Assembly: GCA_017444525.1 (NCBI GenBank)
Contig: JAFSWL010000022.1
Span: 6,646-70,645 of the forward strand
DNA length: 64,000 nucleotides
DNA from: Alphaproteobacteria bacterium
Lineage (GTDB): Bacteria; Pseudomonadota; Alphaproteobacteria; RF32; CAG-239
Reading direction: 5' to 3'
In this document: piece by piece, positions 29,241 through 33,398 of the stretch
How the letters are laid out: every line of letters starts with the position of its first letter
How positions within the stretch are numbered: position 1 is the first letter of the stretch
Program-made: the position numbers and the translations under genes
Notes under the pieces: generated by a model
The model's database searches: none
Told to the model about the DNA's origin: nothing
What the model saw: only the letters and a program-made list of their open reading frames with translations

Positions 29241-32200
29241 CTATAATAACTCCGGTACATCGCCGTCCGAGCTGCTCTCAATAGACGGAGCAGGTTGTGT
29301 CGGTTGCGGCGGAGAAGTATATTTTGGTGTCGACTGCGGCTGCGGACGAGATTGCGGAGCCGGTGCACTGGCCGGACGTACATTGCTTTGTCTGCTACCG
29401 TCATAAGTTACCTCTGCCGAACCGCCCTCTCCGGATTCGCCATCAGAGAATGTTACGGCATCTTCTCCGTTATTTCCACCGCTCACACGCGAGCGACGCT
29501 TATCACGTTTAATACTATTCAGCCACAAATCCTGATTAGGATATATGATGATACGCGTACCGGCCGGAACGTAAGCCACAGAACGAATCCTTTCTTTACG
29601 TTTCATTATATCGTTAATGATTTTTGTAATTTGATCATTAACCTCATCTCTGGCATCTTCCGCCGCAGCGCTGCGTGCATCTTGGGTTGTAGTAGTACCG
29701 TTGGCATTTTGTGTGGTGGTTGAACCTTCGCCACGCGCCATCGCAATATTAACCAAACCTTGCAATGTTGTGGAAACAACAGGCAATGCATAGCGTTTCA
29801 TCAACTGCTCGTCGAGATAACCGATTACACCTGCTCTGCCTTGAGCATCTGCAGATTGAGCACTGCTCAATGTCCATTGCGATCCGTCCGGACGGATCAA
29901 ACGAGTCCATGTTATGCCTATTTTAACAGCGCCTCCGCTATCACCGGCCATATCGCCGCCACCGGATAATTGCCCGATAACGCGTGAACCCGCCGGAATG
30001 ATGATATTGCGCCCTTCTTCGGCAAACACATTTCTCTCGACTATAGCCGTAATCGGAATATTATCACTCAATCCTTCCGAAGCGTAAACCGAACGCGCCA
30101 ATACTGCCGGAATTCCCTTATCTTGTAAGATCATCTCACTCATATCAACACGCCAAGTAGATATATTCTGACTTCCGCCCCAGCCGTCTTCTTCATAGCC
30201 GGTAAAACTTGCCGGATTATAATTAGAATCAGCACTCGGTAATTCACCAACGGCTATTTGCGAACGACGTATCCTCTGCATACTTTGCAATGCGGCAATT
30301 CGCTGCGGATCGTACCTTTCTCCCGGACCATGCCCGCCTCCGGGGCCTACATTCGGTTTTTCTTTATGGTCATAAGCATTCGGCATAAATATACCCTGCT
30401 GTATAGGCGATATTGACTTATCTTCAACCGTACCGATTTGATTATAGTTCTTATCAACCACTGAGCCGTCCGGACGGGCAAAGCCCACAAGATCATTATC
30501 TTTCCATACCTCACCGTTCTCATAAATTTCACCGAGAATATCCCCTTCGGGACCAATTGCTATACCGACAATTCGATTACCGCGTCCCCGATGCGGGCGA
30601 GATGTTACGACTGAACTTTTTGCTTGGGCTTTTACATCATCCGGTTCAACCGGCCTTACTCTTCTATAACTTGTTTTTTCTCTTTCTTCGTCTTGTCGTA
30701 CGGGAGTAATATAATATTGATACGGGGTTGCCCGAGCTATTTCATTGTCATCGGTATCAAAAATCAAGCCGGCATCCTTCAAATAACCGATATTCTTGCC
30801 GTCTCGACTTACAACAGTACCGTTCAGCAATAACTCTCCGACCACATTATAACTGGCATCTCTGACTAAATAATCGCGATTGCCGCGCGCCACCACTTCG
30901 CCGCGCCTATCTACAACAAAACCTCTGTCCATTTTGCCGAGTTTACTGCCGACCATACTGAGAACTGTGCCGTCTTTGGTTAAATATCCATACACAATAA
31001 AGTTTTCATCATACATATAGAAATCATACAAAGCATAACCGATTGTTTCACCTTCAAATTCTACACTGCCGTCAAAATTGACATTACCGACTATCTTACC
31101 GCCGGTATTTTTAACCAGCCCCGCATTATCAACCATTCCCAAAAACTCATTACTATTGCTGTAAGCTACTTTATAGCGCATTACATTTCCCAATTCCTTT
31201 TTGGAAGCAGAAACAACATCGCCGTCAGGCTGCATATATCCGATTATTTTATCATTATTGTCGACAACTTTGCCGTTTGCCAATACGTGGGCAAATAATC
31301 TGTTTTCAAAATCAATAACCGGCTCCGGCAGAATAACTCCGTATTGTTTACGATGTTCCTCATCGACAATAATCCCCTGCCGATTGACACAACCTATATT
31401 CTTGTTGTTAATATCCTTACCCTGTGCGCCGCTTAGCGTACCGACAAAATTACCGTTATAATCTATCAATCCGTGTTGTGATACGGTATATCCTATATAA
31501 TTGCCGACATCAGATACGGCTTGTCCGTTCGGCAAAATATGTCCGCTTATTACGTCATGATGATCGATTATGTCGCCGTTACCATCGACTACACCGATAA
31601 CCGCACACTTATCATTGACAACCGGAGCAAACGGAACCAATTTACCAGTTACCGATTTGTTATTATCCATAACATATTCATTATATATCACCCGACCGGC
31701 AATTTCTCCATTGGTACCGATTATCTGTCCGTTATTGTCGGTATATCCGATTAAATCACCTCCGGTATTTAAGGCTATCAATTTATTGCCGCTAAAACCT
31801 TTCATCGGTGTTGTCAAAGGAGATAATTTATCTTTAGCTGCTACTACATAACCGCCCGGAATTACCTTGTATGCAATTTCTCCCGACTTATTCAAAATCA
31901 AATTACTGTTTGCAAACTTACCGAGTGAATCTCCGTTGTAATCCAAAGCATATCGCGGGTTCAAAATCTCGCTGACAAAATTACTGTCGTCGTGTACGAT
32001 GCCTGATTCGGTCAAAACCGTACCTTTTACCGGTCGATATAGAGCTCCGTTCGGATTTATATATGAATACATTACTCCTTCCGGTCCATAAGTTGCAGAA
32101 AGTGAATATCCCGAGCCGATAACTTTTCCATCTGCCGACATAACATAGCCGAACGGAGAAATACGAACTTTACCGTTTTTATCGCTAATATTGGCATCAA

Positions 32201-33398
32201 TATCGGATATGCCCATTGACGTATTACCTTTAAATGCCACCATCTCGCTTACCGTTCCGCCGAGAAGCGTTCCGTTAGCGCTGTAGGCAAGATTGCCGGA
32301 CATCTTACCGATAACACCTCCGCCAAGCGAAATAACCTTTCCGTTTTTCATACTTTGTCCCTTAAGGCGAGCCAAACTGTCAAACACCGGACCTGTCTTA
32401 GTTAAATTACCGATTTTCTGCCCGTTTTTACCATAAACAAAACCCTTAGCACCAATGTGTCCCACTATTTTACCGCCATCAACAACATCTCCGTTCGGAA
32501 CCAGATAACCTAAATAGTTTCCCATATTATCATTTGCCGTTGCCGATATATCAACCGCGAACCCGACAACCTCACCATTTTCGCGAACCAAATTGCCGTC
32601 AGAGCGATATCGGGCAACAACTCTGTTACCATCTTTGACTTCGCCGTTATACCCGACCACACCCATATAATTTCCGGATTGCGTAAAGGCATAACCGGTT
32701 GTGATAATGCTGCCGATAATTGTGTTTTGCGCATCGTACGCAAAGCCGTTTGCATGAATTTTGCCGATAGGCTTACCTTCAAAATCAATAATCTGTCCGG
32801 TAGGAGCGATGCTGCCCAAAAACTTTCCATCCACCGAAACAACCATTTTAGAAGACATAAGCTTACCATCTAAAACGTAATCTTCGCCTGATTTACGATA
32901 AGCGTAACCGTTAGCTGAAACAAAACCTATATGTTGTCCTTCCAGCTTTGTATATTCGCCGCCGCCGGTTAGACGACCGATAGCCTCACCATTCGGAGAA
33001 TAAATGATTCCGGGATATAATATTTCGCCGATAATTTTAGCGTCATTGTTTAATACCAAGCCATTAGGCAACGAGCGTCCGAGCGTTTTTCCGCTTAGAC
33101 TGCGCACTATACCGTCGCTGTGAATCTTGCCTAAAAGACGATTATCCAACCCGATGGCGATACCTTGCGGCACTATGCCGCCAATAACTGAACCGCGGTC
33201 ATTTATGATTAAACTGTCGGCTGTAACGGAACCTATATTTTCTCCATCAGGGCCGATTACCATACCGTTTGATATAACTTGTCCGATGATATTGCCGTCA
33301 AAATCAATGGCCGTAATTTCAGCAGTATAACCCTTAAGCGGAAGAAGTACTCCTGCTAAGAATAATATCTTTTGTGCAGTTTTTACTATTCTCAACAT
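29241..33398 (-). CDS. virB10: giant VirB10/TrbI-family protein with about 860-aa N-terminal repeat region
   Basis: aa ~1090-1294 (nt ~29517-30131) match the TrbI/VirB10 barrel region (IPAVLARSVYASEG..., IIIPAGSRVIG, ITWTRLIRPDGS, DAQGRAGVIGYLDEQL, VPAGTRIIIYPNQDLWL). The N-terminus is a signal-peptide-like segment, followed by degenerate G-x-[VI]-x-D-x-x-G-x-x-[IL]-G repeats. C-terminal Pro-rich tail. Confidence 0.85.
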   Translation of the reverse strand: MLRIVKTAQKILFLAGVLLPLKGYTAEITAIDFDGNIIGQVISNGMVIGPDGENIGSVTADSLIINDRGSVIGGIVPQGIAIGLDNRLLGKIHSDGIVRSLSGKTLGRSLPNGLVLNNDAKIIGEILYPGIIYSPNGEAIGRLTGGGEYTKLEGQHIGFVSANGYAYRKSGEDYVLDGKLMSSKMVVSVDGKFLGSIAPTGQIIDFEGKPIGKIHANGFAYDAQNTIIGSIITTGYAFTQSGNYMGVVGYNGEVKDGNRVVARYRSDGNLVRENGEVVGFAVDISATANDNMGNYLGYLVPNGDVVDGGKIVGHIGAKGFVYGKNGQKIGNLTKTGPVFDSLARLKGQSMKNGKVISLGGGVIGKMSGNLAYSANGTLLGGTVSEMVAFKGNTSMGISDIDANISDKNGKVRISPFGYVMSADGKVIGSGYSLSATYGPEGVMYSYINPNGALYRPVKGTVLTESGIVHDDSNFVSEILNPRYALDYNGDSLGKFANSNLILNKSGEIAYKVIPGGYVVAAKDKLSPLTTPMKGFSGNKLIALNTGGDLIGYTDNNGQIIGTNGEIAGRVIYNEYVMDNNKSVTGKLVPFAPVVNDKCAVIGVVDGNGDIIDHHDVISGHILPNGQAVSDVGNYIGYTVSQHGLIDYNGNFVGTLSGAQGKDINNKNIGCVNRQGIIVDEEHRKQYGVILPEPVIDFENRLFAHVLANGKVVDNNDKIIGYMQPDGDVVSASKKELGNVMRYKVAYSNSNEFLGMVDNAGLVKNTGGKIVGNVNFDGSVEFEGETIGYALYDFYMYDENFIVYGYLTKDGTVLSMVGSKLGKMDRGFVVDRRGEVVARGNRDYLVRDASYNVVGELLLNGTVVSRDGKNIGYLKDAGLIFDTDDNEIARATPYQYYITPVRQDEEREKTSYRRVRPVEPDDVKAQAKSSVVTSRPHRGRGNRIVGIAIGPEGDILGEIYENGEVWKDNDLVGFARPDGSVVDKNYNQIGTVEDKSISPIQQGIFMPNAYDHKEKPNVGPGGGHGPGERYDPQRIAALQSMQRIRRSQIAVGELPSADSNYNPASFTGYEEDGWGGSQNISTWRVDMSEMILQDKGIPAVLARSVYASEGLSDNIPITAIVERNVFAEEGRNIIIPAGSRVIGQLSGGGDMAGDSGGAVKIGITWTRLIRPDGSQWTLSSAQSADAQGRAGVIGYLDEQLMKRYALPVVSTTLQGLVNIAMARGEGSTTTQNANGTTTTQDARSAAAEDARDEVNDQITKIINDIMKRKERIRSVAYVPAGTRIIIYPNQDLWLNSIKRDKRRSRVSGGNNGEDAVTFSDGESGEGGSAEVTYDGSRQSNVRPASAPAPQSRPQPQSTPKYTSPPQPTQPAPSIESSSDGDVPELL
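30732..33308 (-). repeat. intragenic coding repeat array (degenerate ~17-residue units) in virB10
   Basis: Recurrent nG-x-V-x-D-x-x-G-x-x-IG-x-V pattern from IDFDGNIIGQV onward. A further short block occurs near aa 945-990. Confidence 0.7.

Follow-up and report, generated by a model that had tools for sequence, protein, structure and literature searches.

VirB10 is, to our knowledge, the only subunit of type IV secretion systems (T4SSs) thought to span both membranes, and work on the Agrobacterium system suggests that it passes ATP-dependent signals from the inner membrane on to the gate in the outer membrane. How such a protein can work when its chain carries no membrane anchor is the question raised by a gene on the minus strand (29241-33398) of a stretch of 64,000 nucleotides (nt) from an Alphaproteobacteria bacterium (contig JAFSWL010000022.1), hereafter called the window. 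The gene forms one unbroken reading frame of 1385 codons that starts with ATG. It sits in a virB2-B3-B4...B8-B9-B10-B11 operon in which a further large gene, here called the partner, is interposed after virB9. An earlier note had read the product as a giant VirB10 with a repeat-containing N-terminal half and a signal peptide in place of the usual anchor. Our analysis favors, with a probability of roughly 0.7, the view that this open reading frame (ORF) encodes the C-terminal, outer-membrane half of a VirB10 that has been cut in two by evolution, the partner encoding the other half.

The 1385-aa (amino acid) protein is a genuine member of the VirB10/TrbI family as judged by its barrel, its antenna and the position of its gene. 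In agreement with the barrel proposed at about aa 1090-1294, the Pfam model TrbI (PF03743) matched aa 1090-1293 over profile positions 2-188 of 188 with 111.6 bits (cutoff 35) and an E-value of 5.5e-32. Among PDB sequences, ComB10 (2BHV) matched the barrel best (E 7e-20), followed by CagY, TrwE, TraF and X. citri VirB10. An AlphaFold2 (AF2) model of aa 867-1385, whose barrel strands lie at aa 1096-1195 and 1274-1286, was matched by Foldseek to TrwE/VirB10, CagY, X. citri VirB10, ComB10 and TraF with E-values of 3e-9 to 1e-6. The target-normalized template-modelling (TM) scores were 0.5-0.68 overall and 0.58-0.68 for TrwE, CagY and X. citri VirB10. The antenna projection presumably is the outer-membrane-spanning element, a role that we take over from established VirB10 structures (3JQO). 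The Gly/Pro motif PNVGPGGGHGPGERYDPQR leading to the barrel was found too in the single-chain relative P0128 and in the split-type protein P0140, two types described below. The NCBIfam equivalog models T4SS_VirB10 (NF038091; 83.9 against a cutoff of 220) and T4SS_ComB10 (NF038092; 115.3 against 300) scored far below their cutoffs. The usual bitopic topology of VirB10, with cytoplasmic tail and inner-membrane helix in the same chain, was not found in the 1385-aa protein.

Instead of an anchor, the protein has a predicted signal peptide. In 121 homologs the first ~28 residues are free to vary in sequence, and this leader abuts a near-invariant (A)EITAIDF(N)G. The n-region carries a mean net charge of +2.9 and the uncharged h-region measures 15.4 +/- 3.4 aa. 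Position -3 is A, V, S or G in ~92% and position -1 is A, S or T in ~95% of these homologs, and the AxA motif of the family is kept right where the variable leader gives way to the invariant mature start. No 19-aa window at the N-terminus of the VirB10 reaches a Kyte-Doolittle (KD) value of 1.6, whereas the transmembrane helix of the partner reaches 3.02. The N-terminus thus carries the features of a signal peptidase I substrate, with a predicted cleavage after T25. The replacement of tail and transmembrane anchor by a cleavable signal peptide, as suggested in the earlier note, is well supported by the 121-sequence comparison. The hydrophobic stretch is too short for a transmembrane helix.

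The tail and the transmembrane helix are encoded by the partner (Table 1), and the relatives of the barrel provide hints to the relationship between the two genes. A HMMER search with the C-terminal 445 aa of the VirB10 against 1.84 billion representatives resulted in 74 proteins at a threshold of E <= 1e-30. The matches listed include signal-peptide forms of ~1400-1900 aa and proteins of 1498-2406 aa with the barrel at the extreme C-terminus. The latter are single chains that start like the partner, with M..LSSSEQYVKKSNR, a transmembrane helix and an immunoglobulin (Ig)-like domain. The non-repeat region of the partner (aa 1-215) aligned to the N-termini of 16 single-chain giants with E-values down to 4e-26, and in 12 of the 16 the alignment starts with residue 1-14 on residue 1-14. 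Loci L009 and L013 share the order virB8, small lipoprotein-sized ORF, virB8, virB9, one giant gene, virB11, and the same slot between virB9 and virB11 holds two genes in the window and in L001, L002, L006, L007, L008 and L010-L012. The homology of the partner N-terminus and the shared slot indicate that one VirB10 is divided between the partner and the 1385-aa protein. An assembly error does not account for the single-chain form, because members of the P0128 cluster (141 members) recur at 2201 aa (14 of the 15 listed) on many contigs. As a VirB10, the 1385-aa protein had been correctly recognized; as a self-contained one it had not, since the upstream gene holds the tail and the helix.

The junction between the two genes is conserved as well. 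In all eight aligned loci (window, L001-L004, L006-L008) the partner accompanies the split VirB10 and both of its termini are conserved, the C-terminus as ...GY.L.EVA.NRRN. In the 97%-identical loci L010 and L011 the partner as called again comprises 1413 aa. The partner stop codon and the ATG of the VirB10 are 2 nt apart, the two ORFs being in different frames, and GGAGG is present at the same site in 8 out of 8 loci checked (L001-L004, L006, L007, L008 and L010). The location of the Shine-Dalgarno sequence inside the last codons of the partner suggests translational coupling and explains the conserved NRRN terminus. Among the best-conserved stretches of the two arrays are the last 13 residues of the partner (0.92) and the first 25 residues of the mature VirB10 (0.79). 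When an artificial junction of partner end and VirB10 start was aligned to single-chain arrays, the hairpin register was continuous.

The direction of this change was addressed with the barrel, from which a neighbor-joining tree was built over 220 columns with 100 bootstraps. In this tree the split forms were monophyletic with a bootstrap of 96. Two single-chain giants, P0187 and P0190, branch before the split forms, and the remaining single-chain giants are their sister group. The closest VirB10 of normal size (P0188, 579 aa), which has a related N-terminal motif and transmembrane helix and is free of repeats, was sister to all giants (bootstrap 98). P0188 is encoded in locus L014, where a compact virB2-B11 operon is accompanied by genes for VirD4, an SLT transglycosylase and a helicase that bears relaxase (TraI)-associated domains. 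Its position in a compact VirD4-bearing operon indicates that the giant systems appear to be derived from an ordinary conjugation-type T4SS. A parsimonious history, as read from the sequences, would lead from an ordinary bitopic VirB10 via a large hairpin expansion between anchor and barrel to a single fission in the array.

The array itself makes up most of both proteins. In the N-terminal half of the VirB10, Pfam identified Bflower_2 (PF21785, 133.6 bits, cutoff 38) and Bflower (PF21784, 32.8 bits, cutoff 25). The motif GxxhG occurs 29 times in aa 27-900, compared to 8.1 +/- 2.6 times in 500 shuffles, with a period of 17 aa, and the turns of these 17-aa hairpin units are of the D/N-x-x-G type. 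BLASTP aligned this half with the upstream gene across 960 columns (26% identity, E 5e-48); hence the assumed kinship of the repeats with those of the neighboring gene was confirmed. The partner furthermore matches the Pfam family RHS_repeat and TIGR01643. With 46 aligned homologs as input, AF2 modelled aa 27-900 with a mean predicted local distance difference test (pLDDT) value of 92.4 and a predicted TM-score (pTM) of 0.90, the model being made up of nothing but short strands in hairpins. Since this pTM applies to 874 residues, the model suggests one defined body, not beads on a string. The region aa 26-900 is essentially gap-free in the 121-sequence alignment, which reaches down to 39% identity, with column identities of 0.5-0.8. 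The chain contains only two Cys residues, C598 and C670, which are 72 aa or ~4 hairpins apart and each invariant in 121 out of 121 sequences. The two residues may thus form a disulfide, which would in turn point to an exported location. In the partner, a CxxC (NCNFCE, aa 199-202) follows the Ig-like domain, and the Cys pairs 847/898 and 920/973 are spaced 51 and 53 aa (three hairpins) in its fixed array; these probably form disulfides, too.

Comparison of the N-half model to the PDB by Foldseek yielded Rhs shells and teneurins as best matches with E-values of 2e-31 to 1e-20 and TM-scores of 0.06-0.11. Phage fibers, too, gave very low E-values, and the TM-scores were at most 0.14 in all matches listed for the viral library. 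Interpretation of the N-half as an RHS cocoon was rejected: the similarity is local to the hairpins (TM-score <=0.11 in the top 10 PDB matches) and the fold is not shared. Compact Rhs shells superposed with a root-mean-square deviation (rmsd) of ~29 A, elongated fibers with one of 60-87 A, which hints weakly at a modelled body that is compact rather than a long rod. A PDB sequence search with the partner gave no match, the corresponding search with the VirB10 matched in the barrel only, and neither Pfam nor NCBIfam reported a plug, aspartyl-protease or toxin domain.

At the DNA level, Tandem Repeats Finder detected no repeat array in the gene or in the partner. A CagY-like recombination substrate was looked for, and only 51-nt DNA units of 60-79% identity were found, mostly at nt 35300-36960 in the partner. 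Repeats in the DNA are detectable only among the younger repeats of the partner. Length variation of the system is confined to the consensus-like repeats of the partner (aa ~450-700), to the surroundings of the VirB10 linker and to the low-complexity tail. In some lineages extra repeats seem to have been added near the VirB10 linker, e.g. in P0140 (1888 aa).

The homolog search, which covered 5.8 billion proteins, resulted in more than 120 clusters (90% identity) of full-length homologs. Nearly all of them are 1382-1425 aa long, identities range from 97% down to 39%, and the Bflower plus TrbI architecture is present in all full-length clusters. Databases name them at most 'MAG: TrbI/VirB10 family protein [Alphaproteobacteria bacterium]', MAG denoting a metagenome-assembled genome, and all six genome records retrieved were MAGs of rumen or ruminant-gut Alphaproteobacteria. 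Among MAGs of rumen and gut Alphaproteobacteria this family is common. Literature searches brought up no description of a split VirB10, of beta-flower repeats in T4SSs or of this system in gut Alphaproteobacteria. The possibilities that the start had been placed wrongly, or that the repeats belonged to a separate ORF, are at variance with the single ATG-started frame. Equally long homologs are already catalogued in the databases, a possibility that the earlier note had considered. The ratio of nonsynonymous to synonymous substitution rates (dN/dS), measured against a 97%-identical relative, was 0.05 for the N-half, 0.013 for the barrel, 0.42 for the linker (aa 901-942) and 0.071 for the partner. 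Both halves are under strong purifying selection.

The tail following the barrel (aa 1299-1385) is composed of 17% S, 14% P and 10% G. Such a Pro-rich tail had been regarded as a peculiarity of this protein. It is present, but not peculiar, as low-complexity tails of 74-148 aa follow the barrel in 17 out of 19 relatives of normal size (494-627 aa). At its very end, D-V-P-E-L-L (aa 1380-1385, nt 29244-29261, minus strand) has its penultimate L in 109 and a last L, F, I or M in 118 of 120 sequences. A terminal F or Y was found in 10 of the 12 single-chain giants listed, and the relatives of normal size are devoid of it. Unlike the tail as a whole, the terminal -L-[L/F/I/M] motif is specific to the giants, and it may serve as a docking motif. 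The list of parts holds little that is new; unfamiliar are the split, the export signal borne by the outer half, and the hairpin body.

The split VirB10 may be pictured as follows. Its ancestor would have been one chain of more than 2000 aa, consisting of cytoplasmic tail, inner-membrane helix, Ig-like domain, a long array of 17-residue hairpins and a barrel with antenna. Relatives still keep this one-chain form. In the lineage of the window, the array would have acquired a stop codon together with a start codon and a newly formed Sec signal peptide. The upstream gene would now make the anchored half, to which translation of the downstream gene is probably coupled, and the downstream product would be exported by Sec and lose its signal peptide after T25. 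Like that of any VirB10, its barrel would join VirB9 and the VirB7-like lipoprotein in forming the outer-membrane core. The ~870-aa hairpin body, a presumably rigid, disulfide-stabilized periplasmic module, would dock non-covalently on the array of the partner, and the two chains would jointly span the envelope like a single VirB10. The joint arrays may build a big periplasmic collar or cylinder as proposed for the repeats of DotG and CagY. Together, the two halves comprise 2798 aa per protomer, which is above the size of CagY. The complete picture of a natural two-piece VirB10, in which an inner-membrane energy-sensing half and an outer-membrane gate half are joined only by a continuous, collar-forming hairpin array whose fold has no solved representative, is tentative, and we would give it somewhat less than even odds.

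Could the 1385-aa protein be a self-sufficient giant VirB10 that simply lost its anchor, the upstream protein being an independent accessory such as a peptidoglycan- or envelope-binding scaffold? The two proteins are alike only at the repeat level (26%), and the SPOR domain of VirB9 implies that peptidoglycan contacts matter in this machine. However, the non-repeat N-terminus of the partner is homologous to single-chain VirB10s which fill the same slot as one gene, and the partner is located beside the split VirB10 in every locus examined, with the Shine-Dalgarno sequence of the junction conserved. An accessory role is therefore unlikely. Equally improbable is an uncleaved signal-anchor by which each half would be tethered to the inner membrane on its own. 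An h-region of up to 19-24 uncharged residues in some homologs and the suboptimal G-Y-T at -3 to -1 of the query would be in line with it, although the h-region averages 15 aa, small residues occupy -3/-1 in more than 90% of the homologs exactly at the leader/mature border, and the query is devoid of any 19-aa window at KD >= 1.6. Slightly less probable still is surface display of the hairpin N-half, which would then act as an adhesin or make contact with a host in the way claimed for the middle repeats of CagY. CagY has been described as surface-exposed (PMC2194252), many extracellular proteins contain YD/RHS-like or beta-hairpin arrays, and an autotransporter gene directly downstream is kept in close relatives. 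Yet the array is free of indels across 121 homologs and its dN/dS is 0.05, unlike an exposed surface under immune or host selection, and it has no DNA repeats to drive variation. The single-chain relatives place it between inner-membrane helix and barrel and thus in the periplasm. This fits the entry of the chain into the barrel, which is from the periplasmic side in every solved VirB10 complex that we are aware of (3JQO, 6GYB, 7O3J). The distance of 2 nt and the different frames of the two ORFs might finally suggest an artefact or pseudogene, i.e. a single-chain giant broken by a frameshift or an assembly error. More than 120 protein clusters and 11 out of 11 comparable loci (L005 comes without the upstream region) share this two-gene layout together with the start, the signal peptide and the Shine-Dalgarno sequence, and both genes are under strong purifying selection, so that this explanation is effectively refuted.

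Several points weigh against the VirB10 having been split in the way proposed. A unique split site could not be mapped in the single-chain relatives, the junction query matching many registers. The early single-chain branches of the tree have modest bootstraps of 69 and 61, and the opposite history, a single fusion of two genes, is less parsimonious but compatible with the tree taken by itself. With G-Y-T at positions -3 to -1 the query is less canonical than the A-x-A of its family, and the cleavage of the signal peptide is a prediction from motif conservation. Binding of the two halves to each other, their periplasmic location and the collar role are inferred. For the N-half no global structural match was obtained (TM-score <=0.11 in the top 10 PDB matches and <=0.14 in all viral matches listed). 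Within the 64-kb window, neither a polytopic VirB6-like protein nor VirD4 was found by Pfam, NCBIfam and hydropathy.

Table 1. Location of the parts of the putatively split VirB10 and of the adjoining genes in the window
Feature	Position (nt)	Strand	Basis
Predicted Sec-type signal peptide, aa 1-25 (MLRIVKTAQKILFLAGVLLPLKGYT), predicted cut after T25 (between GYT and AEITA)	33324..33398	-	motif conservation, 121 homologs; hydropathy
Beta-hairpin repeat body, aa 26-895, ~51 hairpins of 17 aa, beta-flower/YD-like, with C598 and C670	30714..33323	-	Pfam, period, AF2, conservation
Variable charged linker, aa 896-942	30573..30713	-	column identity 0.25-0.42 with gaps; pLDDT below 40; dN/dS 0.42
Three-hairpin module, aa 943-993	30420..30572	-	AF2 strands E77-127 of fragment, pLDDT above 90
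Gly/Pro motif PNVGPGGGHGPGERYDPQR and helix aa 1031-1047, leading to barrel	30171..30419	-	near-invariant G, E, R, Y, D, P columns; AF2 helix
VirB10/TrbI beta-barrel domain, aa 1077-1298	29505..30170	-	PF03743, PDB sequence and Foldseek matches, dN/dS 0.013
Antenna, two long helices aa 1198-1221 and 1241-1270 with Thr-rich loop	29589..29807	-	AF2 fragment H332-355, H375-404; ComB10 alignment
Low-complexity S/P/G/Q-rich tail, aa 1299-1385, ending DVPELL	29244..29504	-	composition; pLDDT below 50, AF2-disordered
Shine-Dalgarno sequence AGGAGG for VirB10, in Arg-Arg codons of partner NRRN-stop	33407..33412	-	sequence; GGAGG at same place in relatives
Upstream partner, 1413 aa, candidate N-terminal half of split VirB10	33401..37642	-	sequence, hydropathy, Pfam, alignment to single-chain giants
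Partner parts: basic cytoplasmic tail aa 1-18; transmembrane helix ~aa 19-39; acidic linker	37526-37588 (helix)	-	KD 3.02
Partner parts: Ig-like domain ~aa 85-190; ~70 beta-hairpins aa 215-1413		-	Bflower_2 in 11 stretches; weak choice-of-anchor-D match
VirB9/CagX homolog, 562 aa, directly upstream of partner	37643..39331	-	PF03524, 44.1 bits
VirB11 ATPase, 324 aa, corrected start 29230	28256..29230	-	T2SSE; GAGAGG then ATG; 324 aa in L010-L012

With canonical VirB10/TrbI proteins (A. tumefaciens VirB10, pKM101 TraF, R388 TrwE, X. citri VirB10) the 1385-aa protein shares the barrel, the two-helix antenna and the position between virB9 and virB11. It differs from them in its length (1385 compared to roughly 380-480 aa), in carrying a signal peptide instead of tail and transmembrane helix, in the ~870-aa hairpin body that replaces the Pro-rich linker, and in having its anchor on a separate upstream gene.

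CagY of H. pylori (1927 aa), to which the protein had been likened, is also a giant VirB10 in which a big repeat region precedes the barrel. The VirB9 of its system is of the CagX type, and the barrel of CagY is similar in sequence (PDB 6X6J, E 1e-6) and in structure (6x6k, Foldseek E 3e-9). CagY is a single chain with a transmembrane helix at 344-365, and models of its repeat region disagree between programs (PMC10706595). According to PMC10706595, PMC5954226 and PMC2194252, its middle repeat region, predicted to be alpha-helical, varies more than any other part of the protein and changes by recombination between DNA repeats. The likeness therefore holds for the architecture but not for the chemistry, variability and DNA structure of the repeats: those of CagY are predicted to be alpha-helical, contain Cys and vary in length, whereas the hairpin body is all-beta, contains two Cys only, has a fixed length and lacks a DNA repeat array. 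An alignment of aa 966-1090 to CagY 1569-1690 was gap-rich and low-scoring and was not treated as homology.

CagY, the one precedent named in the earlier note, is also not the only one, since DotG of the Dot/Icm system likewise has a repeat-rich middle domain. In DotG/IcmE this domain is located between inner-membrane anchor and barrel and has been proposed as the source of a periplasmic 'collar' whose symmetry is that of the core complex. The same study attributes the collar to the middle repeat domains of both DotG and CagY, conjugative VirB10s having neither repeat domain nor collar (10.1101/2023.03.22.533729). DotG repeats follow a motif of 10 aa, [KR]-x-A-G-[FY]-..., for which no confident structure prediction was obtained (10.1101/2023.03.22.533729). 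In contrast, the unit found here is a 17-aa beta-hairpin modelled with a pTM of 0.90, the operon is VirB-like (type IVA) and not of the Dot/Icm type (IVB), and DotG is a single chain. In terms of function, the DotG collar offers the best analogy to the hairpin array.

The beta-flower fold was named in 2023 from AlphaFold models, its function being not known (Durairaj et al. 2023, PMC10584680). The beta-flowers described are small single domains of ~96-112 aa with 4-, 5- or 6-fold closure (PMC10584680); such flowers are shallow barrels of 8, 10 or 12 strands. The array resembles them (PF21784 and PF21785, clan CL0395) by scores above gathering, turns of the [DNEQ]xxG type and short strands; it differs in consisting of ~51 hairpins plus ~70 in the partner, with a length above 800 aa and a secretion-system barrel attached. 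RHS/YD shells (T6SS Rhs effectors, Tc toxin BC, teneurins) share with it long strips of beta-hairpins and gave the best Foldseek E-values for the N-half, whereas TM-scores of 0.06-0.11 and an rmsd of ~29 A indicate a different global shape. YD repeats are also longer than the period of 17 aa seen here.

The genes surrounding the two halves complete the picture of the operon. The VirB9 has a C-terminal SPOR domain (PF05036, aa 485-560) that scores 21.2 bits against a cutoff of 21, and a faint SPOR match is present on the VirB9 of L013; SPOR domains bind peptidoglycan. The ATG of virB11 at 29230 is located 10 nt past the VirB10 stop codon, an apparent overlap of 164 nt being only an effect of choosing the longest ORF. 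Between two virB8 paralogs lies a 62-aa ORF with the lipobox LSAC (40115-40303, minus strand), which probably encodes a VirB7-like lipoprotein. ORFs of 58-65 aa are found at this same position in L007, L008, L009 and L013. Three tandem paralogs of 127, 124 and 128 aa (55180-56390, minus strand), each with a signal sequence and two hydrophobic helices, precede virB3 (54399-54689) and virB4 and look like multiple VirB2-type pilins. Six genes for proteins of 234-1707 aa between virB4 and virB8 (41228-51891, minus strand) had no match in Pfam or NCBIfam. Five of them have a signal-peptide-like N-terminal segment only, and the 455-aa product shows a single transmembrane helix followed by a Glu/Lys-rich charged region.

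Directly downstream of virB11 a 1355-aa autotransporter is encoded (24069-28136, minus strand; beta-domain 137 bits). It is kept in L010-L012 and probably in L002, where an unannotated ORF of similar size is found, and is absent from the more distant L007 and L009. Further away, large proteins of 753, 840, 519 and 313 aa are encoded at 7404-14905 (minus strand), which are devoid of signal peptides and have weak HepT-like and MORN matches. This gene run adjoins two ABC exporter genes (15432-18966). Its products could be substrates of the T4SS or unrelated to it.

A clade in which VirB10 is cut in two and its outer half is exported on its own provides a test of whether the relay between the membranes needs a continuous chain. 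If the split VirB10 is real, covalent continuity of VirB10 would not be needed to couple the inner-membrane ATPases to the outer-membrane pore. With CagY and DotG as the first two, the hairpin array is a third and independent type of repeat expansion in VirB10, and it places the beta-flower repeat in a defined molecular machine. Because its rigid body is predicted with confidence, unlike the repeats of DotG and CagY, it could help to explain the periplasmic collar of large effector-translocating T4SSs. Should the proposed arrangement be true, no other model for the unexplained collar of expanded T4SSs would be as tractable as this family.

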